A stretch of DNA of 44,118 nucleotides from a virus (taxonomy: Duplodnaviria > Caudoviricetes). Both the position numbers and the translations under genes were made by a program. The stretch lies in the IMG/VR virus record IMGVR_UViG_3300030372_001002, positions 1 through 44,118 of that record; one strand, written 5' to 3'. Positions 1-44,118 of the stretch are shown here, one piece after another. Under the pieces are notes generated by a model. That model did no database searches. It saw nothing but the letters and a program-made list of their open reading frames with translations, and was not told the origin of the DNA. The number at the start of each line of letters is the position of its first letter. Positions within the stretch are counted from its first letter, which is position 1.

Positions 1-461
1 GATGTTAGATCATTACCTGAAGACTGACCTGAGAATGCAGTATCAACTTCATCAAAGAAGGTCTCACTGCCACCCATTCTGTCATACTTGGAGCGCATTG
101 CAAAGATTAGTCCAGTAGGACCACTCATTGGTTGCACACCAGCTAGGTCATAAGCAACCAAGTTAGGCATTGAACGTCTAATTAAAGAAATTAGAACAGG
201 GTCAAAACCAGCTTGATGACCAGCAGCGTTTGCACTACCACTAAAACCACCTGAATTACCAGCTGTGTTTGCGTGGTTTGTTGGAACTGCTTCGTTTATA
301 GTTCCAGCTTGAGAGAATGATTGCTCATCTCTTAAAAACTTTTCTTGGTTTTCTAACAGGACAGCGGTGACTGCTCTACGATGAGGATCTTTGATCTCAT
401 CAACACCCTCTGCATTAAGCAAGGGAGCCCACTTTTCCTGCAGATGTTCAGCATTGAACAT
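1..461 (-). CDS. g23: Major capsid protein gp23, N-terminal part (runs off the left edge; not in the ORF track)
   Basis: Manual translation from ATG at 461: MFNAEHLQEKWAPLLNAEGVDEIKDPHRRAVTAVLLENQEK...AGFDPVLISLIRRSMPNLVAYDLAGVQPMSGPTGLIFAMRSKY, the T4-like gp23 signature. SD-like AGAGGT at 470-475. Probable gp21 cleavage site I-N-E|A at residues 55-57 (nt 291-299). Confidence 0.98.
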   Translation of the reverse strand, partial: MFNAEHLQEKWAPLLNAEGVDEIKDPHRRAVTAVLLENQEKFLRDEQSFSQAGTINEAVPTNHANTAGNSGGFSGSANAAGHQAGFDPVLISLIRRSMPNLVAYDLAGVQPMSGPTGLIFAMRSKYDRMGGSETFFDEVDTAFSGQSSGNDLT

Positions 462-501
462 TTGCGTTTACCTCTTGTTGTGTTTGATTAAAATACTAAA
501 A

Positions 502-1584
502 TCATTTCTTAGCAACTGCTTGCAATGTCTTAAGATATGCAGCCATTGACCCAGAGACATCTCCCTGTGTATGATCTACAGTCTCAGAAATTGTTTCTCC
601 TGTTGCTTTTGGAGAACTGCTTTGGAAATAAGATTCCCTTAATGTCTCCAACTTTTCACGATATTGACCTTCACTTTCAAACTCAACACTTTCTGCAAGT
701 GAGGCGAGCTTTTCTTTCTGTGTGGCAGCAAGGCCATCAGAAACTGAGTCAAGAATTCCATCAGCAACAGACTCAGCAAGTCTGCCATTTAATGAAACAT
801 TCTTCTCTATTTGCTCGTTGAGCTTGGTCTCCATGTCATCTAGTTTTTCTACCATGCTTTCTAGCACATCATATTTATCTTCAGGGATTTGTACATAATG
901 TTCTTCAAAAAGACCCTTCATTCCAGAAAGGAATGATTCAGTCAATTCATTTTTGAGTCCATGCTCAATAGCAAGTTCATTTTCAACGAACCACTCTTCA
1001 GCAACATACTCAAGATATTGGTCAACTCTTTCTGCAAGTGCAGTCTTAGTTGCCTCTACCTCTTCTGCAAACTGCTTTTCATATGCAGATTGCAAATCTT
1101 CTTTAAGTTCAGATACTTTAGAATTTAAAGCAGCCTCAAAAACTGTCTTTGCTTTCTCTCTGAACTCTTCAGATAACTCCTCTCCACCAAGGAGAGCATT
1201 GACATCAGCTTCAATGTCAATTTCTACAGTGTCCTCTTCTACTGTTTCTGGTTGTTCTGTCACTATCTCTTGCTCCTCTGTTTCTACTTCTTCTGGAACA
1301 TTTGATAGTTTTGAACCAGGTTGTACATCACCAGATTGAACACCTGATTTTGCACCACTATTAACCACATCCTTTACTGTTTTAATCTTAGGCTCTTTGA
1401 TCTTCGCAGAGTCATCATCTGGTTTATAATTTTCTGGTGTAGGACCACCCAGATCCTCATAACCTACTGATGTTCCACCAGTAGTTAGTTTTGGCATAGG
1501 ATCTCCAGCTTTTGCATTAGCATTAACTGCAGTCTTGGATTGGTTAGTGCCTACTTCCATTTCTTGTAAATCTCCACGAGACAT
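502..1584 (-). CDS. g22: Prohead core scaffold protein gp22
   Basis: Acidic coiled-coil protein with ELSEEFREKAKTVFEAA, VDQYLEYVAEEW and C-terminal MAAYL motifs; lies between g21 and g23. Confidence 0.95.
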   Translation of the reverse strand: MSRGDLQEMEVGTNQSKTAVNANAKAGDPMPKLTTGGTSVGYEDLGGPTPENYKPDDDSAKIKEPKIKTVKDVVNSGAKSGVQSGDVQPGSKLSNVPEEVETEEQEIVTEQPETVEEDTVEIDIEADVNALLGGEELSEEFREKAKTVFEAALNSKVSELKEDLQSAYEKQFAEEVEATKTALAERVDQYLEYVAEEWFVENELAIEHGLKNELTESFLSGMKGLFEEHYVQIPEDKYDVLESMVEKLDDMETKLNEQIEKNVSLNGRLAESVADGILDSVSDGLAATQKEKLASLAESVEFESEGQYREKLETLRESYFQSSSPKATGETISETVDHTQGDVSGSMAAYLKTLQAVAKK

Positions 1585-1618
1585 TTGTAAACCCTCTGAT
1601 TACCGAGTACTTAAACTA

Positions 1619-1626
1619 TATTTATT
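1619..1626 (-). promoter_or_regulatory. T4-type late promoter (AATAAATA) upstream of g22
   Basis: One mismatch to TATAAATA, about 35 nt upstream of the g22 ATG. Confidence 0.7.
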
Positions 1627-1634
1627 TAGATAAA

Positions 1635-2285
1635 TTATAAGTTTGATAAGAAATCATTAAATAGATTCAACTTATGTTCATCTAATTTTTTCTGATCAAC
1701 TAATGTGTTGATTGTTTTGTATGTTTTTTCAGCATACTTCTCACGAAGAATACCTCCATCCCATACCCAGTCTTTTCCTTCCATGATACCAGATACAAAT
1801 GCATCTGGTGCTGAAGGATCAGCCACTATATCTGCTGCAGTTGCTAACATAAAGTCTTCACCTACAACATTAATTCCTTCACGAGTTTGTTTCAGTGAAC
1901 CAATACCCCTAGAAGAAACACCTAACTTTACACCTTCTCCTATCAATGAAGATGCAATTTTACCCATTGGGGTAGAAAGGATTTTTGCTTTACCTACAAA
2001 ATTAGAACCACTTTCTTTAAGTGAAGTAATTTTGTGAGATACTCTATCAAGATTAACAGTTGGACCCTCTGGATGTCCCAGTTCTCCAAGTGCTCTACCT
2101 GATGCCACATGATTCTCATTATAACGAGAAACTTCTCTACGAAGAGTCTCCATAGGATACATACGACCATTTCTGTTCTTTATGTTTCCTTGAAGGAATA
2201 CTCCTTCTATGTACAGTTGTTTTTTACCGCCTCTGTTTTCAACAATAAATTCAACTGTTTCTATCTCTTCTCTGATTAGTTTCAT
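1635..2285 (-). CDS. g21: Prohead core protease gp21
   Basis: YIEGVFLQ..IKNRNGRMYP, catalytic GELGHP and GVSSRG motifs, DIVADPSAPDAFV. Confidence 0.97.
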   Translation of the reverse strand: MKLIREEIETVEFIVENRGGKKQLYIEGVFLQGNIKNRNGRMYPMETLRREVSRYNENHVASGRALGELGHPEGPTVNLDRVSHKITSLKESGSNFVGKAKILSTPMGKIASSLIGEGVKLGVSSRGIGSLKQTREGINVVGEDFMLATAADIVADPSAPDAFVSGIMEGKDWVWDGGILREKYAEKTYKTINTLVDQKKLDEHKLNLFNDFLSNL

Positions 2286-2854
2286 TATGCTTGTCCTGTG
2301 ATTTGAACTTGTTGAATGTATACTTTACCAGAACCACTATCAGTTCTAGCAGCTACTTTAAGAGATGCTCTCAAAGTTGCATCTGGATCATTAAAAGTAC
2401 CACTAACTCCAGAACTGTTATGCTCAACTATGATTCTTTGACCAAAGAAGTTTTCTCCTAGTCCTCTGTCTGGAGCACTAGATTTATTAAACACAGTTTT
2501 TACTCTCTTATGAGTAAAATCAAAATCAGTTTGAGATGAACAACTTAAACTAACAAAGTCACCTACTCCAAATGGAGATGATGTCCCTTCTGGAAAATCT
2601 AATATGGTGGTTGATCCTTTAGCATAACTAACCACCCTAGCAGATGTATTAGTAAATCCTAATACAGCAGCACTATCTTTTAAAATTATAAAGTCAGTTA
2701 CAGCTGCAGTAGGTCCAGTTCCAATAGCAACATGTGTATTTTGTCCAGTAGCAACCACTCTAATTGCAGTAGATTTACCAGATATTGGAATAGACTGCTG
2801 AGATGCTGCACCTGTAGTTATTGAAGTTCCTGCTCCAACTGTCCTAAGCGTCAT
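2285..2854 (-). CDS. Hypothetical beta-rich protein, probably virion-associated
   Basis: 189-aa ORF, TAATG-coupled to g21, preceded by a canonical late promoter; Thr/Ser/Gly/Val-rich. Confidence 0.8.
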   Translation of the reverse strand: MTLRTVGAGTSITTGAASQQSIPISGKSTAIRVVATGQNTHVAIGTGPTAAVTDFIILKDSAAVLGFTNTSARVVSYAKGSTTILDFPEGTSSPFGVGDFVSLSCSSQTDFDFTHKRVKTVFNKSSAPDRGLGENFFGQRIIVEHNSSGVSGTFNDPDATLRASLKVAARTDSGSGKVYIQQVQITGQA

Positions 2855-2879
2855 TCTCTTTATACAGAATCATTTTATT

Positions 2880-2887
2880 TATTTATA
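2880..2887 (-). promoter_or_regulatory. T4-type late promoter (TATAAATA, exact consensus)
   Basis: Plus-strand tatttata in the intergenic gap, 26 nt upstream of the ATG at 2854. Confidence 0.8.
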
Positions 2888-2888
2888 A

Positions 2889-3176: not shown

Positions 3177-3184
3177 TATTTATT
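3177..3184 (-). promoter_or_regulatory. Late promoter AATAAATA overlapping the g20 stop
   Basis: Minus strand reads ATC TAA TAAATA. Confidence 0.7.
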
Positions 3185-4838
3185 AGATTTCTCCACCTTT
3201 AGGTAGTTCTGGAGCTTCTGTTGCAGCTCCTTGAGATTCTAAATCTGGTTCTGTTACTGGTTTGCCCAGATCACCACCAGAACCTCCTTCCATGTTGGGG
3301 TCCATCATCATTGCTGGATCAGGAACTACCCCATCAGCAATCTCCTTCTTCATCAACTTATCTTGTTCAATAATTTCCTCATCAGTTTGACGAAGAATCT
3401 TACGTCTTAGATAATCTTGTGAGAAGTATCTACCAACATATGGTTCAGCAGATGCTACCATAGTTAGTCTTTCTGCCATTAATTCAGACTCTTTGAGTTC
3501 TGCAAAATGGTTGTCATAGAGGAAGTCATATTGAATATGCTCACTCATTATTTCCCAGTCTTCTGGGGTAATGACATTTTTAAGTAATAGTTGTGTCTTA
3601 AGAATATCATTGAATAGATTGGAAAATCTTTTTCTTAATCTACCCACAAATTTAGAGAACTTAACTTCATCTCTAAGTATTTCAGATGATCTTCCTAAGT
3701 TAAAACCACTTTCTCCACCTATTCTGCTAGGAGGAACATTCAATGACTTATATAATTTCTCCTGAAAATACTTGATATCTGTGATCTCTCCTAAGTTTTG
3801 TCCACCTGGCAGTGTAGTAATCTCAGTTCCTCTACCACCCTCTCTTCTAGGAAGCCAAAAATCTTCCAACATGGACATATATTTCTTATCATCTCTAATC
3901 TCACCAGTGTCAGCATTATAAACCATCTTATTACGATACCTCATCATCACATCTCTGAGGTATTGTTCTGCCTTAATTTTTGGAAGATTGCCTACATCAA
4001 TGTAGAAAATTCTTCTTTCTGGTGCTCTTGATAATCTGTATATAACAAGACTATCCTCAATCATTCTAAGTTGATTGACTGCTTTGATTGCTTTGTGTAA
4101 GTATGATAAGTTTGATCCTTTGTTTCTATCTACTAATCCACTTGTGCAATATGCAATAGAATCTCTAGTAAATTTAATTCCTTTGTTTCCACCAGTCATA
4201 GCTGATGGCAATTGAGAAGGATAAGTTGACTTAGGACTGTATACAAAATACTCTTCAATCTCAGGAAATTCATATTCCATAGGATTGTCATTATTGATAT
4301 TTGCTAGTCTTGCATCCTTATCTTGCTTCTTTTGTTGTCTTACATAACGCATTTTCATTGCGTCAATGTATCTTAATTCTACTATTCCCTCTTCTGGTTT
4401 TTTAAAATCAATTACTTTATGATAATATAATCTACCATCTATGTACCAATTTCTATAAATTTCATGTGCCTTTTTATCAAAATCTAGTAGATCTTTGACT
4501 GCCTTAAACTCTTCTCTAAGTCTTTTCTTTATTCCATCACTAGCATTTAAATTTGATAACTCAATTTCTACTGGAGAATCATTAGTGTCTGATACTATAG
4601 CTTCATTTACTATATCTTCTATTGCACTATCACACTCAGGGTGTAGTGCCATTTCTCTATATCTTTTTATTAAATCAAATTCAGTTCTATATACACCCTC
4701 TATATCTACATACGATCCAAAAAAACCACTAGTCAAGTAGTGGTCAGATCCATCTGCATTATTTTCAGGAACTGGAGATACCACACCAGGTGATATCTTC
4801 TCAGTATCCTCTATAGAAAATCCAAATAACCTTGCCAT
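3183..4838 (-). CDS. g20: Portal vertex protein gp20
   Basis: Hallmark motifs YRLSRAPERRIFYIDVGNLPKIKAEQYL and EDFWLPRREGGRGTEITTLPGGQNLG. Confidence 0.99.
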   Translation of the reverse strand: MARLFGFSIEDTEKISPGVVSPVPENNADGSDHYLTSGFFGSYVDIEGVYRTEFDLIKRYREMALHPECDSAIEDIVNEAIVSDTNDSPVEIELSNLNASDGIKKRLREEFKAVKDLLDFDKKAHEIYRNWYIDGRLYYHKVIDFKKPEEGIVELRYIDAMKMRYVRQQKKQDKDARLANINNDNPMEYEFPEIEEYFVYSPKSTYPSQLPSAMTGGNKGIKFTRDSIAYCTSGLVDRNKGSNLSYLHKAIKAVNQLRMIEDSLVIYRLSRAPERRIFYIDVGNLPKIKAEQYLRDVMMRYRNKMVYNADTGEIRDDKKYMSMLEDFWLPRREGGRGTEITTLPGGQNLGEITDIKYFQEKLYKSLNVPPSRIGGESGFNLGRSSEILRDEVKFSKFVGRLRKRFSNLFNDILKTQLLLKNVITPEDWEIMSEHIQYDFLYDNHFAELKESELMAERLTMVASAEPYVGRYFSQDYLRRKILRQTDEEIIEQDKLMKKEIADGVVPDPAMMMDPNMEGGSGGDLGKPVTEPDLESQGAATEAPELPKGGEI

Positions 4839-7755: not shown

Positions 7756-7986
7756 CTACCAATCTGGATAGTTCCAATCTGTATGAGGATCTGATTTTTT
7801 TCTAGAATCAACAATTCTTCTTATAGTGCATACTTTACATTCATATGAATAAGCAGATGCCAATGTCCCTCTATCTTTACGTGTCAAGTAAAATCCATCT
7901 ATTAAATTTTTTGTTTCTCCACATACTCTACACTTTCTATCAGAGAGTAATAAATGTCCTAGCCTTATTTGACTATCTAATTCCAC
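7756..7986 (-). CDS. Small zinc-ribbon protein (CxxC-x28-CxxC)
   Basis: CRVC...CKVC; GTG start overlaps the g17 TAG stop. Confidence 0.75.
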   Translation of the reverse strand: MELDSQIRLGHLLLSDRKCRVCGETKNLIDGFYLTRKDRGTLASAYSYECKVCTIRRIVDSRKKSDPHTDWNYPDW

Positions 7987-9689
7987 TACTTATAATCCCA
8001 CATGTAAGAACGATCTCCATATTCATCAACATTCCAAGATCCAGGTGTTCCTGCTAATCTATCTAATTCTAAACTACCATTATCTATTTTCCATGTATCT
8101 CCATCAGAATCAACAAATGTTTCATCATCTAAACCATCCATAATAAATCCAAATGGAGCCATGTCTTGTTCTATTTGATTCTTTTGTTCTTCATATAATC
8201 TTTTTCTTACATCTTGATCTGTAAGTTCTTTGAAATAATCCTGTGCTACTAACCATGCATATATGACAAGACACATTGCAAGATCATCATTACATCCTTC
8301 TTCTGCTTCAAAGGAATTATGTTTTTGAATAAAAGTTGTAAGTTCACTTAATATCTCATAATCCTTAAAAATAAGTTTATCTTCTTCTATAAGAGTTTTT
8401 AAGTTTAGAGAACCTACCTTTTTTACTGTCTTTGACATCTTGACACCTAATTGTGTCTTCTTGCCAGAGAATCCTTGACCTACAATTTGACCTGCCCTAC
8501 CCCTCATAGAACACATCAATAGATTTTCATACTCTAGATCAAAGTTAAGAATAGCAGCAACTTGATCTCCTACATCATTTACCTCACATAATATAAAAGC
8601 ATTATTATAACTCTTTGCTACTTCCCATATGACATTTGGAAATAGCATAGGTTTAATTTCATTATTTCTAAATTTGGCAACAACTTTATGTGGAAACTCA
8701 GTTATATCAATAACCACAAAGGCAGAATAATCACCACCAACTCCTCTTGCCACATCAACTGTAAGAACATAATCATGTTCTCTATTGCATACCTCATATA
8801 CATCTAATCCAGCACTTCTAGTTCTTGGTTCATCATAAACTAATGCCCTTAATTTGCTAGGTGCAATTAGAGTATCAACAGATCCTAAAAATTCACACTC
8901 AAACTCAACCTTAAATTGTGCTTCTGATGTGTTGGCAATTGTAGATTTTTTCCACTTATCATCCCTACCAGGCACTTCACTCCAATGCACATCAGTAGGA
9001 ACATATTCATTTTTTCCCTTTTCTGCATCATGCCACATCCTATAGAAGTGGTTCATACCATGAGGAGTAGAGACTATGATAACCTTAGTGCTCTTACCTG
9101 AGGTAATAGTGGGATAAACTGAACTAAAGAATTGATCAGCAATATGATTAGGAACAAAAGCAAATTCATCCAAGAATAGGATATTGAATGACATACCCCT
9201 AACAGCAGATGCTGATGTAGAAGCAGCAAGAATCTTAGATCCATTCTCTAATTCAAGACTTCCTCTATTCCATGCTATGATACCCTGTTGCATCCACTTT
9301 GGTAAATTCTCATAAGCAGTCTGCAATCTACCTAGCAGTTCTCTAGCAGTGGCTGCTTTGTTAGCTAGTATACCAACATTAACACTATCATTAAAAACAA
9401 CATAGTGTAGTAGATATGCCACACAGGTAGTAGACTTACCAGTCTGTCTGGGCATCTTACAGATGTTAAATCTAGACTCATGAAAGTTTTTAATTAACTT
9501 TTTTTGAAAGTGATAAGGTTTGAATGATGTTAAACCTTCATCTAGACTCACAATTTTTACATACTTTTCTGCAAAATAAATTGGATCATTTCTACAAGCA
9601 TAGAATTCAAGAACTTGTTCTTGAGTAAACTCTTGCTGTACGTTTGCTTTTTTTAGATTGGGATTGCCTAGATAAATGTTGTCTGCCAT
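7986..9689 (-). CDS. g17: Terminase large subunit gp17
   Basis: YLGNPNLKK N-terminus, Walker A PRQTGKS, Walker B LFLDEFA, RNase H-like nuclease motifs VDVARG and NDDLAM. No intein or intron seen. Confidence 0.99.
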   Translation of the reverse strand: MADNIYLGNPNLKKANVQQEFTQEQVLEFYACRNDPIYFAEKYVKIVSLDEGLTSFKPYHFQKKLIKNFHESRFNICKMPRQTGKSTTCVAYLLHYVVFNDSVNVGILANKAATARELLGRLQTAYENLPKWMQQGIIAWNRGSLELENGSKILAASTSASAVRGMSFNILFLDEFAFVPNHIADQFFSSVYPTITSGKSTKVIIVSTPHGMNHFYRMWHDAEKGKNEYVPTDVHWSEVPGRDDKWKKSTIANTSEAQFKVEFECEFLGSVDTLIAPSKLRALVYDEPRTRSAGLDVYEVCNREHDYVLTVDVARGVGGDYSAFVVIDITEFPHKVVAKFRNNEIKPMLFPNVIWEVAKSYNNAFILCEVNDVGDQVAAILNFDLEYENLLMCSMRGRAGQIVGQGFSGKKTQLGVKMSKTVKKVGSLNLKTLIEEDKLIFKDYEILSELTTFIQKHNSFEAEEGCNDDLAMCLVIYAWLVAQDYFKELTDQDVRKRLYEEQKNQIEQDMAPFGFIMDGLDDETFVDSDGDTWKIDNGSLELDRLAGTPGSWNVDEYGDRSYMWDYK

Positions 9690-26976: not shown

Positions 26977-29900
26977 GATATTCCTTATCTCTTAAAGGGT
27001 TGAATCTTTGGATAAATCCTGAAGTGGAGATACCTGTAAGACCATCTTGACCATAGAATTTAAAGTCTCTAGCTTGAGTTCTTGAACCTAACTCTAGGTA
27101 TCCCCAACTATAAGTGCCAAAGAATGGAGCATTATGTACATTACCAGTAAAGGTAACACCTATTCCATTAGAATCAAATTTAGTATTGGTTGAGTCAAAC
27201 TTTAATATAGAAGAGTCAAATGAGTCTGTAGTAAATAAATCAATATTTACAAACACTCTAGTTACAAATGTTGTTGCTGTTCCCACAGTGGATATGCCAA
27301 TTGCAGTATTAGCAACACTGACAGTATTAACATCTGATACTTGATAAACATTATCTATAAATTGAGTTCCCACTCCAATAGTGGTAGCTCCTCCAACATT
27401 AAATGATCTTAATGTAGTGGATGCTGATCCAACATTACTTTCATCTACTAGGAAGAAATCACCCACACTTAAAGAACTCAAAGTCACTGCAGTGCCAACA
27501 TAAGCACTATCCCTTAAGAAAGAATCTTCAGGAATATACAAGTCAAACATAAATTTGTTTTGACCTCCAGATGTTGTTGTTCCAAAACCAACTATTGTGC
27601 CATAATCACCAGAGTAGGTTATTGAAGTTACTTTTTCAACTCTGTTAGCCATCTTTGGTTCTTCAATAAGAACTGCAGGAGGACTAGAAACAGTGTATCC
27701 ACTACCAATGTTACTAATGGTAATAGATCCTACACTATCACCATCCATAATAGCAACTGCTTTTGCTACTTGAGTAGTTCCCATTCCAACAGGTTGTTCA
27801 ATGGACACTGTAGGAGTAAAGGTATAACCAATTCCTACATCAGATATAACAATAGATGTAATAGATCCAGCAGCAGAAACTAAAGCTGTGCCAGCAGCAC
27901 CTGATGCATCTTCTTGAGAAACTATGTTTATAGAATCTTGTGATCCATAATTCTCCTTAGTGCTATCAAAGAATATTCTAATATTTTCAACATATGCTTC
28001 TGTAGAAGCTATACCCACTGGTTGTATCAAAGTGGTAGTTGGATAAATCAGTGGTTCATAATGAGATCTATCTTTAGTAATTGATTGACCATCAATAACC
28101 TTATCTACAATTTGTTTATGCCAATTAATTGGTCTATCAAAAGTTTCATTAGTAGTGATACCAGGACCAGGATATGGATTAGTATTAACGTTATCAGCAG
28201 CATTGATGCTTGTTACTGTTCTAAGATCTTGTTCTAATGCTAAATCTTGATTATGCAATCTTACTTCATCACCTGTCTGAATTGTTTCTAAAATATCAAC
28301 AGTGGCAGTATCAACTGATGCAGTTCCTTTATAGAATAAAATTTTAGAAGTATCACCTTTCTTAGGTGCTTCCTTAAAGGTGATAAAACTACCACCTTTA
28401 AATTCATATCCATTACCAGGAACTTGCAGAATATCATTTATGAATACTAGAATAGTAAATTCAACATCAACATTAGATCCTGGTTGTGATTGAATTGTCT
28501 GTTGAGTGCCATTCAATTTTAATGGGAAGGATGTGTCTTGACCATCAAATAAATTATCTAAAGGATCTAATACCTCCAGATCTCCAATAGTCCAAGCAGC
28601 AAAACTATCACTTCCAACTTCTCTTACAGTAACTTCAAATTGTCTGGATGGACTGAAGTTACTGTCAGTTGGTATACCTACTGTTCCACCAACACCAATT
28701 GTTAGAACTTGATCTTCACCATAACCAAATCCTTCATTAATAATTTCAAAATCAATAACACTAGATCCTTGTCCTACAACTATATTAGCTCTTGCCTCAG
28801 ATCCAATTCCACTAGATGAAGAAGCATAGAATAAAGGCATATTGGTGTATGATAATGGTTCATCAATAACCACCAATGGAGGATTAGTTGTTGTATATCC
28901 AGTGCCAGGATTAGTAATTGCAACACTTACTATATTACCATTACTAATTGCAGCAGTACCAATGAACTCAATAGCTGGTGTTCCAGTGCTTAGTGTTTGA
29001 ACACCAACATTAACTACAGTTTGAATACCAGATCTATATCCAGAACCACTATTACCAATACTAACAGAAGTGATAGTACCTAAACCAGATACAACAGCAG
29101 TACCACCTGCAGCTACTAATGGTTGATATCCAAATCCTTCTGTAGATCCAACAGAGACAACCACACCACCTAAAGGAACATTAGCAGTGTTTGGATCATA
29201 TGATACAGAGGCAATGGTTCCTGTAAATTGTATACTTGTAATACCAACACTTTCCCTTAGTGTATAATCACCACTGACACTCACTCTCTTAGATTCAATA
29301 CCAGTGAATCTTTGTGGTCCTTGTGCTATTTGATTAACCAAAACAATTGCATTGCTTGTAGAAAATCCTGTTACATTACTTCCTCCAACCTGTAAAGTAA
29401 ATTCAGTGGAAAGTCCAGAGAATCCATGAGAAATATCATCAAAGATATAATTTAAACTATATGGTTCTACAGAACTACCAGTAATACCAGATCTCATGAA
29501 AGATCTACCATTGAATGTAGAGTGTGTTGCAACACCTACAAAATCTCTAGAATCAGGTTCATTAGTTGTAGAAGATAAAGGAGTTAATCCAACTGGAGCA
29601 CTGAAGAAGTGAACTTCATTATCTACTATGTTATAATTACCATCAATTTTTGTAACCAAATCACCAGAACTATAATTAGAAACTCCTGTTCCCATCCAAG
29701 GTCTAGTAACCAATAACCTATTAGTTGCACCAAGTCCAATAGAATCAACTTTAACAATTTCATTACCAATCTTTAACATATCTCCACCAGTTATAGATGT
29801 GATACCTGAAATTGTTATTGTGTCTGAGGTTGTTGATACATCAGCAACAAGATGAGTAGTGACAGAAGTAGATACAATGGGTTGCTGAATTACATTATCA

Positions 29901-32900: not shown

Positions 32901-35900
32901 GAATGATAACTAAAAGAATCATATGACAACTCACCATCAGTATTTGAAAATTCTAATTTTTTAGGTGCTCTTTTAACTGCTATATTAAAAGTGGTAGAGG
33001 CAGCACTCACAACTGCATGAGTTCCATTCAATTCATTATCTCTCAAAACCAACTTACTAGGACAAGTAATATTTAAATTATCTCTAATAATTTCTCTCTT
33101 AACATTACTATTCAGTTCTAAATTGACAGGAACTAAATTATAATATAGATTTTGAGTAATTTCTTTTATATTTTTAATAGTGAGTTTTGCAGTGGCATCA
33201 ACTCCAATAGTTCCAACTTTACTTACATTGAAATCATCAGTCTCTTGTGATGTATGAAAAACATTTGTTAAATCCTTATCAGTGTAAAGGACAAAATCAA
33301 AAGCAGCGTATTGCACTTCATTACTTAAGAAAGATAAAGAAGAATCTGATAAATCAAAATCAACTTGTTGATTTCTCTCTATGATTATTTCAGGGTTTAC
33401 TGCAGATATAGTTCCAGATTGAGCACTTGTTATATTAATTACTTTAGGATGTTTCTCTACAGACTCATGATATTGATTTGATAATTTTATGGTATTTTCA
33501 TCTACTATAAACACATAATATATTTGATTATTTGCTAATCCACCAGATGGTGTGGTTGCAGTGTAAATAACCTTTTGTCCACTAACATAATCATGTTTTG
33601 GTATGGTAATGGTGTTGTTTGTGGTATTAACATTTCCTGAAGCAAATGTTCTAGGATTAATTACCAATCTTCTATTAAAGTCATTATATGCCACACTTAC
33701 TGTGGTGGTTATTCCTGGTAGAACTTTTAAATCTATGGCATCATTTGCTAATAATCCATGAGTAGATGATGTGGATACTGTAGCTAAAGATCTTTTTATA
33801 TTTCCACCTAACACATTACTATAGTTAGTTTTAAAACTATGATTCAATCCAGTTCCAATTCCAATAAAGAATAACGTGCTAATATTAGTAGTGCTATTAA
33901 TTCCAGTAAATGAACCAGTAGCTCCTAGACCAACTCTAGCAGTTGATATTCCTATGAGATCACGTGATATAGGAGCAGCAAATAAAGATTGACCCTCTGC
34001 AAGAGTAAACTCCATGGTGCCATCAGTAGATACTCCTAAAGCAGTTCCCCCATTAGTATTGTATGTTAAGGAATCTCCTATAGCAAGTTTATGATTTGGT
34101 AGATAAACAGCTTTGGTAGGAATAAATATTTCAGATATACCTGTGCCAGGATTGGAGAAAAATAAAGTAGATCCAATACCAACCCCAGATACATTGCCTA
34201 GCGCTATGGATTCTTTAGGATTGAAATAAAATTGTCTATTTAATTTAAAATCATTATTACCAACACTTGTAGATCTAAATGCAAATTTTCTAGGTTTATC
34301 TTCTATCAAAGAAGTAGCAGTATGAGCAGATCCTATAGTAGATTGATGATTTCTAAGAACTCTTATTCTTCTTAGATCTTTTTCTACATTCAATACCTTT
34401 ACGCACTCAGTTCCTATTCCTAAAACATCATTAGGTAGAATATTCAATTCATCAAAATTACCATCTATATTAAAATATGTTGTAAGACCAGTAGCACCTG
34501 CAGAACTTATTCCTACATTTAACTTAAATCTACTTGTGGTTATCCCTATGGGAAATACAGAATCATTAACAAATGTTTCTGTGCTCAATCCACTGATAGT
34601 TATAAATTCCTTGAGATTGAAATTATGAGGAACAGTGGTATATCCTATGAATTCATTTGGAGATTTACCCAAAATAAATTCTACATTTGAAAACTCAGTA
34701 TTAGCAATACTAATGTTGCTGATAGTTTTCCCACCAACAGATAATACCTTTGCTTCTGCTCCATATCCACTAGTACCAGAATCATCAAATACTATGACAT
34801 CATTTACTCTATAATTTGATCCTCCTGTTTTTATACCAACAGACTCAACTACTCCAGTAGATGTTTCAGTTATAAAGGTTTTTTGATTTCTAATAGAGTT
34901 TGGATTTACTAAGAAATCATAACTAGTTTTATTTAAAAGGAAGTTATATACTCTAGTATTTCTAATATAATCAGTTTGATTTAAATCAGTATCATCTTGA
35001 TTTGAAAGGAAACTAAAATTATATTCTATTGATTTTGATTTATAAGAATTACCTATAAAATAAGGAAATTCTGGTTTTCTGAAATTCTTAAATACTCCCT
35101 CTGAATCCAAAGCATCAGGGTTAACTGTGGCAAAATATGCATACACTCCATTTGGATATTCTGGTGTTTTGCAGAATCTACCATTATGTTGATCTAAATC
35201 TTTACCTTCCTCAAATATATAATCCTCTACAAAAAATCCATTAGAATATACTTGCTCTCCCTCAACAGTAAGTGGATTTGGTCTTTCTGATGATATTGAA
35301 ATTGAATATCCAGATTCAAGTATAGTAACAGGTCCACCAGAATTATTCTTAAATCCATATGGACCATAGATGGGAGATCCATCATATGACCATCCAATAA
35401 TTGGAGAATGACTGCCAGAAGTATCTTCTTGAGCATTCTTATTTAAAGATAAATCAGGAATAAACAACTCCTTGTCGCCTACAGACTTCTTAGTGAAAAC
35501 AGATTGTCTTAACTTTCTAGGAGCATAAGCATGAGAATACTCTAAACCATACCTATCATTAAAACCAGTGCTAACTACACCATCATCAGATGTAATTTGA
35601 TTATTTTGAATTAATCTTTGAACATTGTTTATAGTCCAAGATTTTATATTTGAATAAAATTTAGCACTCTGTCCATTTGGTGTTACTGATACATTAATAT
35701 TAGATGAAGTGTGTCCTATTCCACTATGAACTACTTTTACAGAATCTATAGATCCTGATTTCATTATTGGAATCAATACAGTGCCAGAACCATCTCCTGA
35801 TACTTTTAATTCTGGAGGTGAATTATATTCAGATCCACCATTTAATACTAATACTTCAGATACTCTTCCAGTTTCACTACTTACAATTGGAAGTAGTTGA

Positions 35901-38900
35901 GCATCTTTACCACTCTTAAGAGCAATATCAGGTTGTCTGTTATAGTTGATAACATCTGCTGAACCATACTCAATTCCACCAGAAGGGACAAATACAGATT
36001 TTACAGATCCCTTTACAATTGGTCTTAAATCTGCTTGAAAGTTTTGTCCACTAAATGTAGATACTCCTATGTTACCATCCACTGTTACTGTTATTGGTGG
36101 GTAGTTAAATTCATGAATTCCAGTTCCACCAGAAAGTAAATTTAAATATTCTTTATTTCTTAAATAATGATTTACTGCAGTAGATCCTACACCTACAGCA
36201 GATAATCTAAATGAATTACCATCAACAATTGAAGCATAGTAATCAGTTTGTGTTGTTAAACCTAAAATTGGTGTTGTGGACTTAGTATTATATCTTATCT
36301 TCTCACCAGTCCTATATCCATGATTTGGAATGTTTATAGTGTTATTTGCAGTATTGATTCCAGATGAAGTTGTAGATGTCAATCTATTTCTATATCCTAT
36401 GCCTGAATTAGCGATAGTTACAGAACTAATGACTCTTTTCTGATTGACAGACTCTAAATTATGAAGACCTGTTCCAAAAGCTGTTAAGTCTATAGGAGAT
36501 AATCCATCAACAGAATCATCATAATTTTTATGCAAAGTTACTGTTGTTGCACTTTTGACACAACAATGATATGCAGCACCAGTAGTAAGTCCAGCTATTG
36601 CAGTTTGACCTTCTGTGTTGTATGTAATTAACTCTCCATCTGCAAATTTATGGAAAGTTGAGAATCCAATTATGTTAGAACTAATGTCTACTAGTCCACC
36701 ATCCTCAGTTGAATCAAATTCTACAGAATGACTTTTTAAAACTAAATTAGGTGTTGCAACACATCCAATTCCATTACCTCCACTTACTTTTAAGGTAGGT
36801 GTGGAAATATAATCAAATCCACCATCAACTACATCAATTCTCTCCAAAGAACCTTGAACTTCGCAATAAGCTGATGCTCCAGAACCAACTGGGTCTGTAA
36901 TAGAAACTATAGGTGGATTTACCACATCATAACCAGATCCTTCAGCAGTAACAGATATATCATTTACCTTACCAAAGTAAACAATATCATTTGACTTATA
37001 ATTAAGTATCTCAACACCATTCACCAATATACCAGTCTTACCTATTGGAGTTGACTCAGATATAGGAGAAACAACTGGTGTATCAATTTTTCTCAATAAA
37101 TTTTGAGCTAATATTGTTTTATTAGAAAAACGTGCTAATTCAAATCTATTATTTGCAACATTACCAGTGAGTCCTATAAAGTTCTCATTTGAAACATTAG
37201 AAAGACTTCTAGCAATTTTAATTGTGTTAATATCTACTTTTTTGATAAAATATTCTTCTTCTAAAATATCTAATTTATTTTCTCCAGTACCTGGTATATA
37301 CTTTACTTTTTCTCCAGTCATCAATCCATGATTAGGGATTATGATATCAGTATTGTTTATAAAATTACCAGAAAAAGTAAGAGTGGTATCTCTAATATCC
37401 AAATCCTCATTTAAGTAATCTGGAATAGATGGTGATGCAATATAGACACAATTATCACCATCTATGTAAGAATTCTGAACATTTGTAGTATAAATGCTAG
37501 ATTCAGGATAATTACTTAAATTTGCTTTAGAAAGTAATCTTTGAATTTTATATGATATTATTTCATTCAATTCTCCAGCACCTTTTATCAATACTTGTTT
37601 AGAACTGATAAGGGAAATAATTGAGCATGGTGTTGTGTTAATAAGAGCACTATCACCCACAACAAAGTCATGAGCATCAAAAAGATTTAATTGATATGTA
37701 AAGTTTGATTTATCTACTAACTCTATGGAGTCTACATCATATGTGGTAGAAATATTTGAGAATAAAGATTTAGAAACAATATCATCAGACTTAGATCCTA
37801 ATCCTCTAGGTTCTATGACATCTCCAATCTCATTATAGGTAGCAGTAGTTAAATTTAAATCTAAATCCTTTAAAACACCTGTTACTCTAAATCTAATCTC
37901 ATCAGCAGTTCCTATGCCAGCATATCCATATGCATAGGCATCCATTTTAAGATCTTGAGTTGAATCTATGGTTCTTTCAACTCCAGAGCATCCAAAAAAC
38001 TGAGTTAATGATTTTGAATCATATTTAATGGTGGTTGAAGTGCCATCATCAAAATTAGCAATTAAAGAACCAGTAGTTCCAAATCCAACAGTAGAATCAA
38101 CAGTTAAAACAGTTGAACCAATAGAAACACCCTCAATCAACTTTGTATTTGGATGAATAGGGAATTCTGCAGATACTACTTGAGAATTTTTATCAAAATC
38201 CAAAGAAAGTCTATAATATGTCTTAGTCCCTCTTACAATAGCCTCTACATCACTTACAGCAGCTGTAACTGAAGCAAACCCATCTACAGGGTCTTGAAAT
38301 ATGTTTCTATTAACAAGATCTGATGGATTACCTAATACTGGTTCAACTACAATTTGTTTAGATACCTTATAGTTAGCTGCAGAGGGTGTAAATAGAAAAT
38401 CACGTGGTTTTAATACTTCTACATCCTTTCCATACAATGCACGAAACAATATCTCAAAAGATTGATCAGTTCCTTTAGAAGAATAGAAATCTTTTGATTG
38501 TTTAATGAATAATCTTTGATCAATACTTGTAGATAATGGTCTTTCCTCAAATCCAGGTATAACTTGTTTTTTTACCTTCTTAAAAAACTCTTGTAAAAAT
38601 CTAATGCTTAAATTATTGACTACAGCATCCTTTGAGTGTTCATCAATGTTAGATTCAGAAAATACAAGCTCATCAGATTTATTAGGACTTCTATATGATG
38701 TAATTCCACTGAATCCTCTAGAACATCCAGTAAATGAAGTAGCAGTTATTCCAGTATAAGTAATAATCTCAGAATCAATCTGAATCAACCCATATGACTC
38801 TGGGAACCCCACAGTAGACTCAACAGGTATGATATCATCAAAAAGTTCTATATCACTAGAAAGGGTTGTAGAATCTATTAGATCTGTTAACTCATCTAAC

Positions 38901-39070
38901 TTTACATAATTGTCAATATTTTGAATTATATCAAGAGGTGAACCTTGATTCTCTATTGCAGTATAATATTGTGATAAAAAATCACCAGCAAGTGGAAAAT
39001 CTGCTCTTATAAAATCTGGCAGTTGATTTTTAACAACTGAACTAATTTTGACTCTTGTATTGTCTGACAT
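26972..39070 (-). CDS. g7: Giant baseplate wedge initiator, gp7-like (4032 aa)
   Basis: Position between g6 and g8; N-terminal VKISSVVKNQLPDFIR..FP...FL.QYY and KDFYSSKGTDQSF.ILFRALYG; DSDYYQYFSYSLKS...HTAGFKKF core; many repeated accessory domains. Confidence 0.88.
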   Translation of the reverse strand: MSDNTRVKISSVVKNQLPDFIRADFPLAGDFLSQYYTAIENQGSPLDIIQNIDNYVKLDELTDLIDSTTLSSDIELFDDIIPVESTVGFPESYGLIQIDSEIITYTGITATSFTGCSRGFSGITSYRSPNKSDELVFSESNIDEHSKDAVVNNLSIRFLQEFFKKVKKQVIPGFEERPLSTSIDQRLFIKQSKDFYSSKGTDQSFEILFRALYGKDVEVLKPRDFLFTPSAANYKVSKQIVVEPVLGNPSDLVNRNIFQDPVDGFASVTAAVSDVEAIVRGTKTYYRLSLDFDKNSQVVSAEFPIHPNTKLIEGVSIGSTVLTVDSTVGFGTTGSLIANFDDGTSTTIKYDSKSLTQFFGCSGVERTIDSTQDLKMDAYAYGYAGIGTADEIRFRVTGVLKDLDLNLTTATYNEIGDVIEPRGLGSKSDDIVSKSLFSNISTTYDVDSIELVDKSNFTYQLNLFDAHDFVVGDSALINTTPCSIISLISSKQVLIKGAGELNEIISYKIQRLLSKANLSNYPESSIYTTNVQNSYIDGDNCVYIASPSIPDYLNEDLDIRDTTLTFSGNFINNTDIIIPNHGLMTGEKVKYIPGTGENKLDILEEEYFIKKVDINTIKIARSLSNVSNENFIGLTGNVANNRFELARFSNKTILAQNLLRKIDTPVVSPISESTPIGKTGILVNGVEILNYKSNDIVYFGKVNDISVTAEGSGYDVVNPPIVSITDPVGSGASAYCEVQGSLERIDVVDGGFDYISTPTLKVSGGNGIGCVATPNLVLKSHSVEFDSTEDGGLVDISSNIIGFSTFHKFADGELITYNTEGQTAIAGLTTGAAYHCCVKSATTVTLHKNYDDSVDGLSPIDLTAFGTGLHNLESVNQKRVISSVTIANSGIGYRNRLTSTTSSGINTANNTINIPNHGYRTGEKIRYNTKSTTPILGLTTQTDYYASIVDGNSFRLSAVGVGSTAVNHYLRNKEYLNLLSGGTGIHEFNYPPITVTVDGNIGVSTFSGQNFQADLRPIVKGSVKSVFVPSGGIEYGSADVINYNRQPDIALKSGKDAQLLPIVSSETGRVSEVLVLNGGSEYNSPPELKVSGDGSGTVLIPIMKSGSIDSVKVVHSGIGHTSSNINVSVTPNGQSAKFYSNIKSWTINNVQRLIQNNQITSDDGVVSTGFNDRYGLEYSHAYAPRKLRQSVFTKKSVGDKELFIPDLSLNKNAQEDTSGSHSPIIGWSYDGSPIYGPYGFKNNSGGPVTILESGYSISISSERPNPLTVEGEQVYSNGFFVEDYIFEEGKDLDQHNGRFCKTPEYPNGVYAYFATVNPDALDSEGVFKNFRKPEFPYFIGNSYKSKSIEYNFSFLSNQDDTDLNQTDYIRNTRVYNFLLNKTSYDFLVNPNSIRNQKTFITETSTGVVESVGIKTGGSNYRVNDVIVFDDSGTSGYGAEAKVLSVGGKTISNISIANTEFSNVEFILGKSPNEFIGYTTVPHNFNLKEFITISGLSTETFVNDSVFPIGITTSRFKLNVGISSAGATGLTTYFNIDGNFDELNILPNDVLGIGTECVKVLNVEKDLRRIRVLRNHQSTIGSAHTATSLIEDKPRKFAFRSTSVGNNDFKLNRQFYFNPKESIALGNVSGVGIGSTLFFSNPGTGISEIFIPTKAVYLPNHKLAIGDSLTYNTNGGTALGVSTDGTMEFTLAEGQSLFAAPISRDLIGISTARVGLGATGSFTGINSTTNISTLFFIGIGTGLNHSFKTNYSNVLGGNIKRSLATVSTSSTHGLLANDAIDLKVLPGITTTVSVAYNDFNRRLVINPRTFASGNVNTTNNTITIPKHDYVSGQKVIYTATTPSGGLANNQIYYVFIVDENTIKLSNQYHESVEKHPKVINITSAQSGTISAVNPEIIIERNQQVDFDLSDSSLSFLSNEVQYAAFDFVLYTDKDLTNVFHTSQETDDFNVSKVGTIGVDATAKLTIKNIKEITQNLYYNLVPVNLELNSNVKREIIRDNLNITCPSKLVLRDNELNGTHAVVSAASTTFNIAVKRAPKKLEFSNTDGELSYDSFSYHSYGPISDIKLINSGREYRSLPGISTIVSDLGDDAILEPDSFSIGRISNIDVQDIGFDYSADRTLKPEAQIPQLIKINSFFSLENIGITSTGNDYLNAPGLVVLDGVTKKTISDIDLTYKLGDENVTILKNSRNLNQVEPTILPTGNSNGIKIASADFNESDQKVTISIGVSYSSLDDYPFEVGKKVMIEGISVGVGSTGKGYNSANYEYKLFEILATDPNIGGTLGSITYSLSGVIPDGDIAGTFNESSIGRIIREEDFPTFSTTLKGNEFDIGETLESDTAVGILQSRNDFNGFLKVSSSGDFKVGDIVVGQSSGTKATVIEHISYKSLYNIESFSIKNEGWKDNFGFLNNNEQRLFDSDYYQYFSYSLKSECEFEKWKEVVSSLNHTAGFKKFSDLILRSETSVGLSTAQDGSSFDVQTDLVEPISINTVFDFDLAREKTENIDNSVLSDEIVFSSRDLKDYTESVGNRVLSIDDISQDFNDNARTDPFVAVDTFTLSGSRDRKSIIYVRDKRFTGERQAMIVNALHDDSGNLFLNQYGSVFTQKDLGSFDMTQSGSNGQLQFFPKKFSFNNYDVSVLAYNVGDSTAGIGSTDFGSIVKIASESHLIEAGISTSATVVGIASTYRSSKVLVSYASSDSSYFETEELTILHNGSDVELLEYGQLNTDNLGSPAGTPGLGTYSAYYSGSHIFVDLHPTVSTATTFIANSIQVSIGNSLSAGVGTDALNTGTLDSRLTTISSSGSPGITTVAKYETETFAAAYYIVSIEDLSNSQYQVSEILVVDDGTNGNLTEYGIVQTGGNLGDFSININGDFTHLGFKPLASADVQVRVLQNSLRLVDDANANQEIGFTNASVNTGSGAYTATETDVKRQFELKHKQLPIFKRDFVGGASTVVSTITDSVIIPNHFFVTGEELEYRFTGAGTTSAIEITSQSIPGVGVTDKLPSTVFAIKKDDKTLQLATSAENALKTNPTFIDITAVGVGTSHSFTSKKQNSRCIISIDNVIQQPIVSTSVTTHLVADVSTTSDTITISGITSITGGDMLKIGNEIVKVDSIGLGATNRLLVTRPWMGTGVSNYSSGDLVTKIDGNYNIVDNEVHFFSAPVGLTPLSSTTNEPDSRDFVGVATHSTFNGRSFMRSGITGSSVEPYSLNYIFDDISHGFSGLSTEFTLQVGGSNVTGFSTSNAIVLVNQIAQGPQRFTGIESKRVSVSGDYTLRESVGITSIQFTGTIASVSYDPNTANVPLGGVVVSVGSTEGFGYQPLVAAGGTAVVSGLGTITSVSIGNSGSGYRSGIQTVVNVGVQTLSTGTPAIEFIGTAAISNGNIVSVAITNPGTGYTTTNPPLVVIDEPLSYTNMPLFYASSSSGIGSEARANIVVGQGSSVIDFEIINEGFGYGEDQVLTIGVGGTVGIPTDSNFSPSRQFEVTVREVGSDSFAAWTIGDLEVLDPLDNLFDGQDTSFPLKLNGTQQTIQSQPGSNVDVEFTILVFINDILQVPGNGYEFKGGSFITFKEAPKKGDTSKILFYKGTASVDTATVDILETIQTGDEVRLHNQDLALEQDLRTVTSINAADNVNTNPYPGPGITTNETFDRPINWHKQIVDKVIDGQSITKDRSHYEPLIYPTTTLIQPVGIASTEAYVENIRIFFDSTKENYGSQDSINIVSQEDASGAAGTALVSAAGSITSIVISDVGIGYTFTPTVSIEQPVGMGTTQVAKAVAIMDGDSVGSITISNIGSGYTVSSPPAVLIEEPKMANRVEKVTSITYSGDYGTIVGFGTTTSGGQNKFMFDLYIPEDSFLRDSAYVGTAVTLSSLSVGDFFLVDESNVGSASTTLRSFNVGGATTIGVGTQFIDNVYQVSDVNTVSVANTAIGISTVGTATTFVTRVFVNIDLFTTDSFDSSILKFDSTNTKFDSNGIGVTFTGNVHNAPFFGTYSWGYLELGSRTQARDFKFYGQDGLTGISTSGFIQRFNPLRDKEYL

Positions 39071-41577: not shown

Positions 41578-41585
41578 TATTTATT
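41578..41585 (-). promoter_or_regulatory. Late promoter AATAAATA heading the baseplate operon
   Basis: Overlaps the stop of the 216-aa gene (GAA TAA ATA), 22 nt upstream of g25. Confidence 0.7.
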
Positions 41586-42231
41586 CACGTTCTTTTGCTA
41601 TTTTCCAGAAGTAATCATCCTGATCACCCATTCCATCATACTCCCTACCATTTTCTACCTGATAATACTGTGTAGACACCTTAAAGTCAGGTTGTTTAGG
41701 TTCTTTGGGTGTAATACTATTGTCATATATTCTCATTCTGTTGTTTGGGTACAGAGCATACTGTCCATTTTCCAATTCAATAAGGTTATGTGACTTATGT
41801 TCTGCAGGTGTCTCACTTGTAGAGTAATCTACAAAGTCAGGATGGTCATGATAGTTATCCAGAGTGGCAACATAAGTGCCCTTCATGACTCCATGATCCC
41901 TTGTATACAACTCATATGACATAGAACCTATAAATTGCTTTTGAACTGCTGTGACTCCATAATCCATACAGTTCCAAAACTGTAGATTATACAGATTCAT
42001 ATCAGGATCTGGTATCTCAGGATCAGTTAAGAATGCACTGATAGGTAACTTATCAAACATTGCAGCATATTCTGGTAAATATGTCTCAAAATAAAAAGCA
42101 CGTCCAGGCATACTCTTTGCAGATACCCAGACGCCTCTTGTAAATTCACCAAAACCATGTTTAAAGTCAGTTAAATACTCCTTTCTTACCCATACCTCAA
42201 TGGCAGGAAGATTGCAGATTAGTGAACTCAT
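41581..42231 (-). CDS. Conserved phage hypothetical protein (216 aa, aromatic-rich)
   Basis: Long ORF abutting the upstream gene; NLP...WVRKEYL, W[ND]C.DY, EHKSHN and YPNNR motifs look like a conserved cyanophage family. Function unknown. Confidence 0.85.
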   Translation of the reverse strand: MSSLICNLPAIEVWVRKEYLTDFKHGFGEFTRGVWVSAKSMPGRAFYFETYLPEYAAMFDKLPISAFLTDPEIPDPDMNLYNLQFWNCMDYGVTAVQKQFIGSMSYELYTRDHGVMKGTYVATLDNYHDHPDFVDYSTSETPAEHKSHNLIELENGQYALYPNNRMRIYDNSITPKEPKQPDFKVSTQYYQVENGREYDGMGDQDDYFWKIAKERE

Positions 42232-42581: not shown

Positions 42582-42591
42582 TAGAGGTCTC

Positions 42592-43359
42592 CTAGATAAC
42601 TCTTGTTTTCTCATGACCCACTCTGATTCTTGGATCACACCATATCTCCTCACCTTGCTCAATGGCATCCAAGCAGAATGAGACATCCTCACCACACATA
42701 TCTTGCACTGCCCCTGACTCAAAGACTTGCATCTTAGGTGCAAACCAAGGATAAGGCAGATTCTCAAAGACACCATTCTTAATGAGTACCCAACCAAAAC
42801 CTGTATAGTCTACTGTGAAAGGCTTTCTACGCTTACTCATAGACTCCACAGTCTCATGATTCATTACGCCACCATTCTTTCTGAAATCATCTTCTTCCAA
42901 CCAGTGAGCAACTGAGGTGGTTGTGCCATCTTCAGTAGCATACCAACCTGCTGAAATAGGTCTTTCATCACCTTCTGCTGGAACTGCTACATCACAGAGT
43001 TGCCAGAACTTTTCTGTAGTAAAGACAATATCAGAGTCAATCCATAACTGATAGTCATAGTTAAGTTTGCCATCCCAAGGAATTTGCTTTGGTCCTCTGA
43101 GAACATTTGCACCAAGAACCTTACATCTTGCAAAGTTTACCATAGAAGAGTAGTCTTGACTAATCTGTATAGACATACCATTCTGTACCATGTCAAAACA
43201 TAGTTGTACAAAGTTCTTTAAAAAGATATATGAGCATCCTCTACCTGGTAAGCAAAACACTATGGTCTTACCTTTCATTCTTTCCTTGATAGCATCATAA
43301 TCCCAATCCTCTGCCTTGGGTTTTGGTGCTGCTGCTTTAACAGTAAATCCTTTTGCCAT
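42592..43359 (-). CDS. GT-A fold (GT2-like) glycosyltransferase
   Basis: IVFCLPG strand, SSMVNFAR helix, DxD motif in YQLWIDSDIVF, YTGFGWVLIK, acceptor-side GEDVSFC, and DPRIRVGHEK with a C-terminal His. Confidence 0.85.
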   Translation of the reverse strand: MAKGFTVKAAAPKPKAEDWDYDAIKERMKGKTIVFCLPGRGCSYIFLKNFVQLCFDMVQNGMSIQISQDYSSMVNFARCKVLGANVLRGPKQIPWDGKLNYDYQLWIDSDIVFTTEKFWQLCDVAVPAEGDERPISAGWYATEDGTTTSVAHWLEEDDFRKNGGVMNHETVESMSKRRKPFTVDYTGFGWVLIKNGVFENLPYPWFAPKMQVFESGAVQDMCGEDVSFCLDAIEQGEEIWCDPRIRVGHEKTRVI

Positions 43360-43635: not shown

Positions 43636-43639
43636 AATA

Positions 43640-43741
43640 TCAGGAATTAAACACTTTATATATGCTCACTGCAATTACTCCAAGGGCAGTCCACATACAA
43701 AAGTTAAGTATCCTGAAAGGTAATAGAATGAAAAACTTCAT
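43640..43741 (-). CDS. Putative 33-aa single-pass membrane peptide
   Basis: Manual translation MKFFILLPFRILNFCMWTALGVIAVSIYKVFNS*; stop 4 nt before the next ATG; no clear SD. Confidence 0.5.
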   Translation of the reverse strand: MKFFILLPFRILNFCMWTALGVIAVSIYKVFNS

Positions 43742-43742
43742 G

Positions 43743-43900
43743 GGCAAATTTTTTTAGGCAAAATTTTTTTTTATATCTCTATATCTCTATCTCAATTTGT
43801 CACCTCTGTAGGTTAGGGTCTCTTTGTTTTTTTCGCCACGCCCCCCACAAACAAACACAAACCAACACAAATAACTGCTGATTCACTAACACCAACACCA
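43743..43900. repeat. Non-coding low-complexity block: duplicated GGCAAA(A)T-tract, ATATCTCT tandem, C6 run, AAC[AC]C-type repeats
   Basis: ggcaaa-T7-a-ggcaaaa-T-run; tatatctctatatctctatctc; ccccccacaaacaaacacaaaccaacacaa...aacaccaacaccaa. No plausible ORF. Confidence 0.7.
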
Positions 43901-43935
43901 ATAAAATAAGGGTGCTAATTAACACATAGCACCCT
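43899..43935 (-). terminator. Intrinsic terminator downstream of the 34-aa ORF
   Basis: Perfect 9-bp stem AGGGTGCTA (43909-43917) / TAGCACCCT (43927-43935) with a 9-nt loop, followed on the minus strand by UAUUUUAUU. Confidence 0.8.
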
Positions 43936-43950
43936 CACAGTTGTTGTTAC

Positions 43951-44055
43951 TTATAGTACTGTATCTTTCACCTCTACAATATCATCTAGCACTGATAATA
44001 TGTCTGCTCCAGTGTTAGTTTGCTCAAGTAGAAAAAATGCAAAGTTAGGTGACAT
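43951..44055 (-). CDS. Hypothetical 34-aa peptide
   Basis: Manual translation MSPNFAFFLLEQTNTGADILSVLDDIVEVKDTVL*, bracketed by a structured leader and a terminator. Confidence 0.65.
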   Translation of the reverse strand: MSPNFAFFLLEQTNTGADILSVLDDIVEVKDTVL

Positions 44056-44077
44056 AATCACTAATAATAAATGTACA

Positions 44078-44104
44078 GAATAGTTTAGAGACTTACTCAG
44101 GTCT
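44078..44104 (-). other. Predicted compact H-type RNA pseudoknot in the leader of the 34-aa ORF
   Basis: AGAC CUGAGUAA GUCU CUAAAC UAUUC: stem 1 AGAC/GUCU; the loop GAGUA pairs with downstream UAUUC (one G-U). Confidence 0.45.
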
Positions 44105-44118
44105 GATAACATTTAGTG

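Follow-up and report, generated by a model that had tools for sequence, protein, structure and literature searches.

Deep CG depletion in T4-like cyanophages and its association with a putative restriction-modification-like cassette

Introduction

The viral contig IMGVR_UViG_3300030372_001002 (hereafter the window, meaning all 44,118 bases of it) comes from a T4-like cyanophage and lacks about 92% of the CG dinucleotides that its base composition would predict. In the current study, we describe this CG purge, which occurs in some lineages of related phages, bears a signature of selection, and in relatives is tightly linked to a gene of the N4-cytosine methylase family whose nearest solved relative is the CpG methylase N4CMT. 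We propose, with moderate confidence, that the purge reflects a restriction-modification-like cassette borne by the phage lineage, in which a predicted CG methylase is paired with a predicted nuclease and the genome avoids its own sites.

Depth and context of the CG loss

The window contains 105 CG against 1,270 expected from base counts, an observed-to-expected ratio (O/E) of 0.083 (0.081 on both strands), with GC at 0.89 and a G+C content of 34.2%; C and G lying 1–7 bases apart remain near expectation (O/E 0.77–1.24). These counts bear out the preliminary description of this DNA, which had tallied by eye roughly 100–110 CG (O/E near 0.1), a CG-free run of about 3.3 kb, about 7 CG in an 8.1-kb gene and 2 in g17 (exact values in Table 1), and about half a dozen CCG and CGG (6 in total). 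Its view that simple codon preference does not explain the loss was also upheld: at codon junctions 39 CG were found, compared with 419 ± 15 in 300 synonymous-codon shuffles that fixed the protein and its codon usage, so that the corrected ratio stays far below 1. The window has 19 NCG codons, and CGN supplies 39 of its 490 Arg codons. The CGN share of Arg codons drops from 41% in unpurged loci to 17% in purged loci and 7% in the window; for Arg following a C, with the amino acid thus fixed, it is 47%, 7%, and zero, respectively. Codon bias is therefore ruled out as the cause by the shuffles together with the amino-acid-fixed Arg counts.

How much is lost depends on the neighbouring bases. Compared with the level in 68 structural loci that are not purged, only 0–1% of CCGG, TCGA, CCGA/TCGG, and ACGG/CCGT remains, whereas RCGY is the least depleted context at 32–61%. 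Within the 17 window genes of at least 200 amino acids, the remaining CG gather in the first 40 codons (9.3/kb versus 1.6/kb downstream), a clustering that is less marked in P-TIM68 and slight in pooled loci. GTAC, CATG, TGCA, and AGCT also lie 7–10 z under Markov expectation in the window, and likewise in P-TIM68.

Distribution of the purge among relatives

Among 80 relatives collected from IMG/VR by their portal gene, 11 have a CG O/E below 0.4 and 69 lie at 0.42–0.74. The window belongs to a starred eight-row clade of the portal tree with O/E of 0.08–0.29, of which it is the most purged member, and neighbours of this clade stand at 0.31–0.53. On a separate branch, the complete genome of the cultured Prochlorococcus phage P-TIM68 has an O/E of 0.108 across all 197 kb, the late structural genes being its most purged portion; over the portal region it differs fourfold from P-SSM2, another Prochlorococcus phage (0.12 versus 0.52). 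Mapping the trait on a g20 tree, as the preliminary description had suggested, confined the purge to some portal lineages: on 49 chosen portal rows, not all loci (L228, at 273 amino acids, was left out as short), the purged label requires 3 changes versus 13 when shuffled, two of the 3 being forced by starred branches. On these portal sequences the purge appears lineage-specific, with three separate lineages, P-TIM68 included.

Phage dinucleotide content tends towards that of the host, according to the portion of the source available to us (PMC11282364). The purged phages depart from this general resemblance, as they fall well under the CG O/E of their presumed Prochlorococcus-type hosts; Prochlorococcus loci lie at 0.36–0.72 in 26 of 26 cases, which rules out host mimicry. 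Depletion common to all relatives and hosts, which the preliminary description had named as removing the novelty, is thus not what the data show.

Selection rather than mutational decay

The preliminary description had offered CpG-specific C5 methylation with deamination, or selection against CG-containing recognition sites, as the origin of such a loss. The former is not supported, on several counts. The TpG/CpA ratio of the window (1.25) is within the range of the 80 portal relatives (1.08–1.29), and there is therefore no special deamination footprint. No C5 methyltransferase (PF00145) was detected in five phage records, including complete, purged P-TIM68, by a search whose positive control succeeded in 9 of 14, and the enzyme that tracks the purge is of the N4-cytosine SPPY type.

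Selection, by contrast, fits the differences between near-identical genes. Twofold-site differences were counted in 80 control pairs and in 94 gene pairs, disjoint and 95–99.7% identical, taken from purged loci; the pairs lack phylogenetic independence. In purged pairs, C/T differences per T amounted to 0.0094 before G versus 0.075 before other bases, and those per C to 0.16 versus 0.14; the corresponding control values were 0.045 versus 0.070 and 0.137 versus 0.106. New CG thus arise 8-fold too rarely, and existing CG are not hypermutable. That CG is rarely gained, rather than rapidly lost, points to weak selection per site, and the loss bears a signature of selection rather than of decay of 5-methylcytosine (5mC) or N4-methylcytosine (m4C).

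A methylase gene that tracks the purge

In relatives, the cassette lies between mazG and a cytidyltransferase gene. P-TIM68 has two PF01555 genes, one of which, AIR93494, has N4CMT as its best solved relative (E 1e-44, ~220 residues aligned); in searches of the PDB only, phage methylases matched N4CMT structure 8S9M at E 1.3e-44 and 1.8e-44, with the next enzyme at 8e-14 and 3.5e-15. A PF01555 domain with the catalytic SPPY ahead of the S-adenosylmethionine-binding motif is present in P-TIM68 and in loci L129 and L153. By its sequence, the cassette methylase is an N4-cytosine enzyme of the beta class, N4CMT-like and of the SPPY type, and it is predicted to mark CG at N4. Its closest other relative among cultured phages is at most 41% identical to AIR93494.

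Of 102 methylase-carrying loci found in IMG/VR, 80 were kept, and all 80 show CG O/E of 0.115–0.335. As a control from the same region, 80 helicase-anchored loci were collected, 35 of which span the cassette slot: the 3 with the methylase (one being the query's own contig) lie at 0.12–0.28, and all 32 without it at 0.435–0.745. Distant methylase relatives (37–40% identity) accompany O/E of 0.63–0.88, and a search of 301 host-family genomes yielded no ortholog. The other N6_N4 methylase of P-TIM68 (46248–47162) was rejected as the cause because unpurged P-SSM2 has a close counterpart.

Two observations concern related enzymes. Locus L252 carries, at 10469–11326 between g55 and g47, a gene whose product is 63% identical to the methylase but has extra residues inserted after SPPY, and which has no nuclease-like neighbour; the CG O/E there is 0.45. 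The motif RGCY is also under-used (O/E 0.33 in the window and a median of ~0.25 in 377 viral loci, compared with 1.2–1.8 in Prochlorococcus), and is absent from two 12.7-kb stretches (L177 and L178; S-RIM12 and S-CAM22) around a 38% methylase paralogue; RGCY loss possibly represents a parallel system.

The nuclease-like partner gene

Directly upstream of the methylase lies a restriction-enzyme-like gene from one of two families, A1 (AIR93493 in P-TIM68) or A2. It adjoins the methylase in 78 of 80 loci, that is, in all 78 with a whole upstream open reading frame (ORF), and co-inheritance holds in 140 of 140 evaluable A1 rows, although these are redundant and partly circular. The families appear unrelated (hhalign probability 0.2). 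The predicted A1 model (mean predicted local distance difference test score, pLDDT, 89.6) gave no Foldseek match in the PDB at E 0.001, and in a wider search helical matches to residues 1–66 filled the list, so that the core was barely probed; A2 gave no Foldseek match in the PDB either. Weak Atlas and fold leads, without a sequence-level match, point to HpaII/MspI and HhaI/HinP1I. The partner gene likely encodes a DNA-cutting enzyme, although the fold evidence is weak.

The cassette is variable in other respects. Many copies have a second variable gene upstream (e.g., AIR93492 in P-TIM68), which in L766 (168 onward) is a distant A1 relative with an ISLK motif, and in L756 the nuclease-like gene is separated from the methylase by an adenine-methylase-like gene (2481–3400). 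Remote A1 relatives are frequently fused to DUF6267.

Connecting the cassette to the window

The window itself encodes no methylase, and the replication module is absent from its 44,118 bases; by the gene order of P-TIM68, the cassette-bearing module would sit past the g23 end of the contig. A chain of overlaps leads from the window to L187 (99.6%), L270 (86.5% over 2.9 kb), L348 (98.2%), L590 (99.4%), and L153 (98.3%), the last carrying both the methylase and the nuclease-like gene; the 86.5% step is comparable to the 84–88% between the window and its own portal clade. In an unfiltered overlap component (88% identity over 1 kb), 79 loci, five of them methylase-seeded, lie at O/E 0.07–0.39 except one at 0.53. 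A contig walk within the window's own species reached g46 only, short of the cassette, and of the long records from the methylase side, nine had a portal match, none of them within the window's clade (67–77% identity). The overlaps connect the cassette with the clade of the window, and its presence in the window's own species is presumed.

Proposed mechanism and alternatives

In the proposed mechanism, the nuclease would cut unmarked CG in the DNA of the host or of co-infecting or rival phages, while the methylase would shield newly made phage DNA. Every residual CG would then expose the phage to a slight chance of being cut by its own enzyme ahead of marking, such that selection would remove new CG, with the greatest force in CCG/CGG and YCGR contexts. 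Per kb, the host has 18 CG and 4.6 YCGR, compared with 2.4 and 0.045 in the window (~7-fold and ~100-fold fewer). More tentatively, it is possible that a mobile restriction-modification cassette directed at bare CG resides in three or more lineages of lytic T4-like cyanophages, including cultured P-TIM68, in which an m4C CpG methylase from the source family of rotifer N4CMT is combined with interchangeable CG-cutting nucleases, host or competitor DNA is destroyed, and CpG loss on a vertebrate scale results from selection alone.

A serious though unlikely alternative is that the methylase alone drives the purge, CG marking being a broad anti-restriction shield in which each marked CG is costly, through a modification-dependent host nuclease or through interference with phage transcription or replication, and the upstream gene being a passenger or having another target. 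The constancy of the methylase (80 of 80) beside two unrelated upstream families, the similar context ranking with either family, the complete loss of RGCY beside the paralogous methylase in S-RIM12 and S-CAM22, and the strong purge of late structural genes in P-TIM68 would all suit such a shield; the retention of a nuclease-like neighbour wherever the upstream ORF is whole would not, nor would the O/E of the L252 locus, where a relative lacks this neighbour (one case, whose specificity may differ), and selection on the sites of a shield ought to be relaxed. We consider it improbable that a host defence acts against phage DNA with unmethylated CG, with methylase and purge as parallel countermeasures. 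Phage stretches that are not purged (P-SSM2, AG-341-P01, AG-345-O18, and AG-345-L05; loci L087, L083, L084, and L088) nevertheless have CCGG and GCGC at O/E 0.00–0.03, which suggests that hosts exert pressure on sites with a CG core. Yet the hosts are richer in CG than the phage and lack a methylase ortholog, unpurged phages are common on the same host genus, and the neighbouring nuclease-like gene would be left unexplained. The preliminary description had allowed either a CG-directed modification system or evasion of a host sensor; the former gains from the lineage-level association with a predicted CG-directed modification gene, while evasion of a purely host-encoded sensor is the less likely of the two, given that the purge goes with the phage cassette and that P-TIM68 and P-SSM2 differ fourfold.

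Methylation-driven hypermutation, by C-to-T deamination or by C-to-A change, is largely refuted and very improbable. Because m4C can be hypermutable to A (in the part of the source available, C-to-A rises ~500-fold at one Type III site in Salmonella; 10.1101/2021.01.19.427316), both routes were tested. CG is commonly aligned to AG or CT when compared with unpurged relatives, differences per C at 88–95% identity are 1.7 times as frequent before G as elsewhere (controls 1.4), and the window alone leans slightly towards A before G and towards T in NCN codons. In close purged pairs, however, the per-C ratio is 1.13 versus 1.30 in controls, where ~10 would be needed; C/A differences show no excess (2 versus 11 C/T before G; 15 versus 94 elsewhere); the A/T balance at fourfold sites hardly changes from 184 unpurged loci to 117 purged ones; and 42 of 48 CG of L188 are retained in the window at 96.8% identity. 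On the pair differences and the fourfold-site balance, both routes were rejected. There is likewise very little to commend the idea that the window's species lost or never had the cassette, its purge being inherited or otherwise caused: the want of a direct contig link and the single 86.5% step of the chain leave room for it, but the window is the most purged of its clade, and its overlap component is almost uniformly purged with methylase-seeded loci inside.

Gene content of the window

The window carries a module of T4-like structural and baseplate genes through to the start of g23, with all real genes on the minus strand (Table 1). The g20 portal and the cyanomyovirus g15–g23 gene order place it among T4-like cyanophages (Kyanoviridae-like), and the host is probably a marine picocyanobacterium. 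Of the phages compared by portal, Bellamy and S-SM2 infect Synechococcus.

Table 1. Features of the window and their positions
Feature	Position	Strand	Remarks
Genome-wide CG purge	1..44118	.	O/E 0.08, context-graded
Major capsid gene g23, start only	3..461	-	contig ends here; complete gene on L187, 99.6% identical
Scaffold gene g22	502..1584	-	bait for same-species contigs L187 and L188
Portal gene g20	3183..4838	-	identity 77% with Bellamy and S-SM2 and 74% with P-TIM68; purged subclade
Terminase large subunit g17	7986..9689	-	by gene order and sequence; 2 CG
2,698-amino-acid structural gene	16360..24456	-	position of P-TIM68 'putative neck protein'; 8,097 bases, 7 CG, O/E 0.03
4,032-amino-acid baseplate-type gene	26972..39070	-	position of P-TIM68 'putative baseplate wedge initiator'; 14 CG, O/E 0.04
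Longest CG-free run	28191..31473	.	within the 4,032-amino-acid gene; flanking CG at 28189 and 31474
phrog_3704	41581..42231	-	labelled ferredoxin
phrog_1574	42592..43359	-	weak glycosyltransferase match
ORF-free stretch	43640..44118		no ORF of 70 amino acids; T runs and A/C-rich tract; two rare CG 5 bases apart (43834, 43839); likely promoter or origin region

Significance and comparison with known systems

CpG loss of this depth is usually attributed to 5mC decay or to animal immune pressure; here it occurs in ocean phages with neither, under a signature of selection instead. The analysis also gives a testable role, in a cultured phage, to an orphan phage methylase and an unnamed phage family (a phrog_1462 subfamily). 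If the proposal is correct, the cassette would be a restriction system found in nature whose recognition core is only two bases long, and its two enzymes, a CpG writer of m4C not known before and a CG nuclease sensitive to methylation, could become tools; the rotifer 4mC (m4C) writer would seem to stem from a phage family; and fragmented viromes could be screened for the cassette by their CG content.

Restriction systems carried by viruses are known, as are CpG methylases. The restriction-modification and nicking systems of chloroviruses degrade host DNA, recognize very short sites, and include C5 and N6 methylases. Both they and the present phages have a virus-encoded methylase and a nuclease (here predicted), but chloroviruses are giant viruses of algae, whereas here a bacteriophage has a predicted N4 enzyme. 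The Type II pairs HpaII/MspI and HhaI/HinP1I recognize 4-base sites with a CG core. They resemble the phage cassette in their adjacent methylase and nuclease(-like) genes and in avoidance of their own sites; the phage cassette differs in residing in a lytic T4-like phage and in a purge graded over all 16 NCGN rather than confined to one 4-mer. In Mollicutes, CpG loss involves a C5 enzyme with deamination. Strong CpG under-representation there has been linked to CpG-specific M.MpeI/M.SssI in the part of the source available (PMC11282364). CpG loss and the methylase link are shared, but P-TIM68 has no C5 enzyme match, and CG in the purged loci are not hypermutable.

Marine Myoviridae-like genomes have several methylases and the m4C motifs RGCY, CCWGG, and GGWCC, and the main text, as available, mentions for them neither a CG motif nor loss of CG nor a nuclease partner (Hiraoka et al., PMC8919816). 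We found no literature report of CG purging or of the cassette in cyanophages, although CG motifs or these phage enzymes may figure in the supplements to PMC8919816 and PMC8885841; the available part of 10.1101/2025.05.15.652987 does not mention cyanophages. The best solved relative of the phage methylase is N4CMT of the bdelloid rotifer Adineta vaga (8S9M/8S9N/8S9O), which shares the beta class and SPPY motif and methylates CpG at N4, as the accessible portions of the sources state (PMC10406627; PMC8885841). Its flank preference gives no clean prediction of the surviving CG contexts. According to the latter source, as far as available, the rotifer lineage falls in a cluster with methylases from phages whose specificity is unknown, and rotifer CpG ratios carry no deamination signature (PMC8885841). 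The rotifer enzyme is an epigenetic writer, whereas the phage gene stands beside a nuclease-like gene in a genome shorn of 70–90% of its CG.

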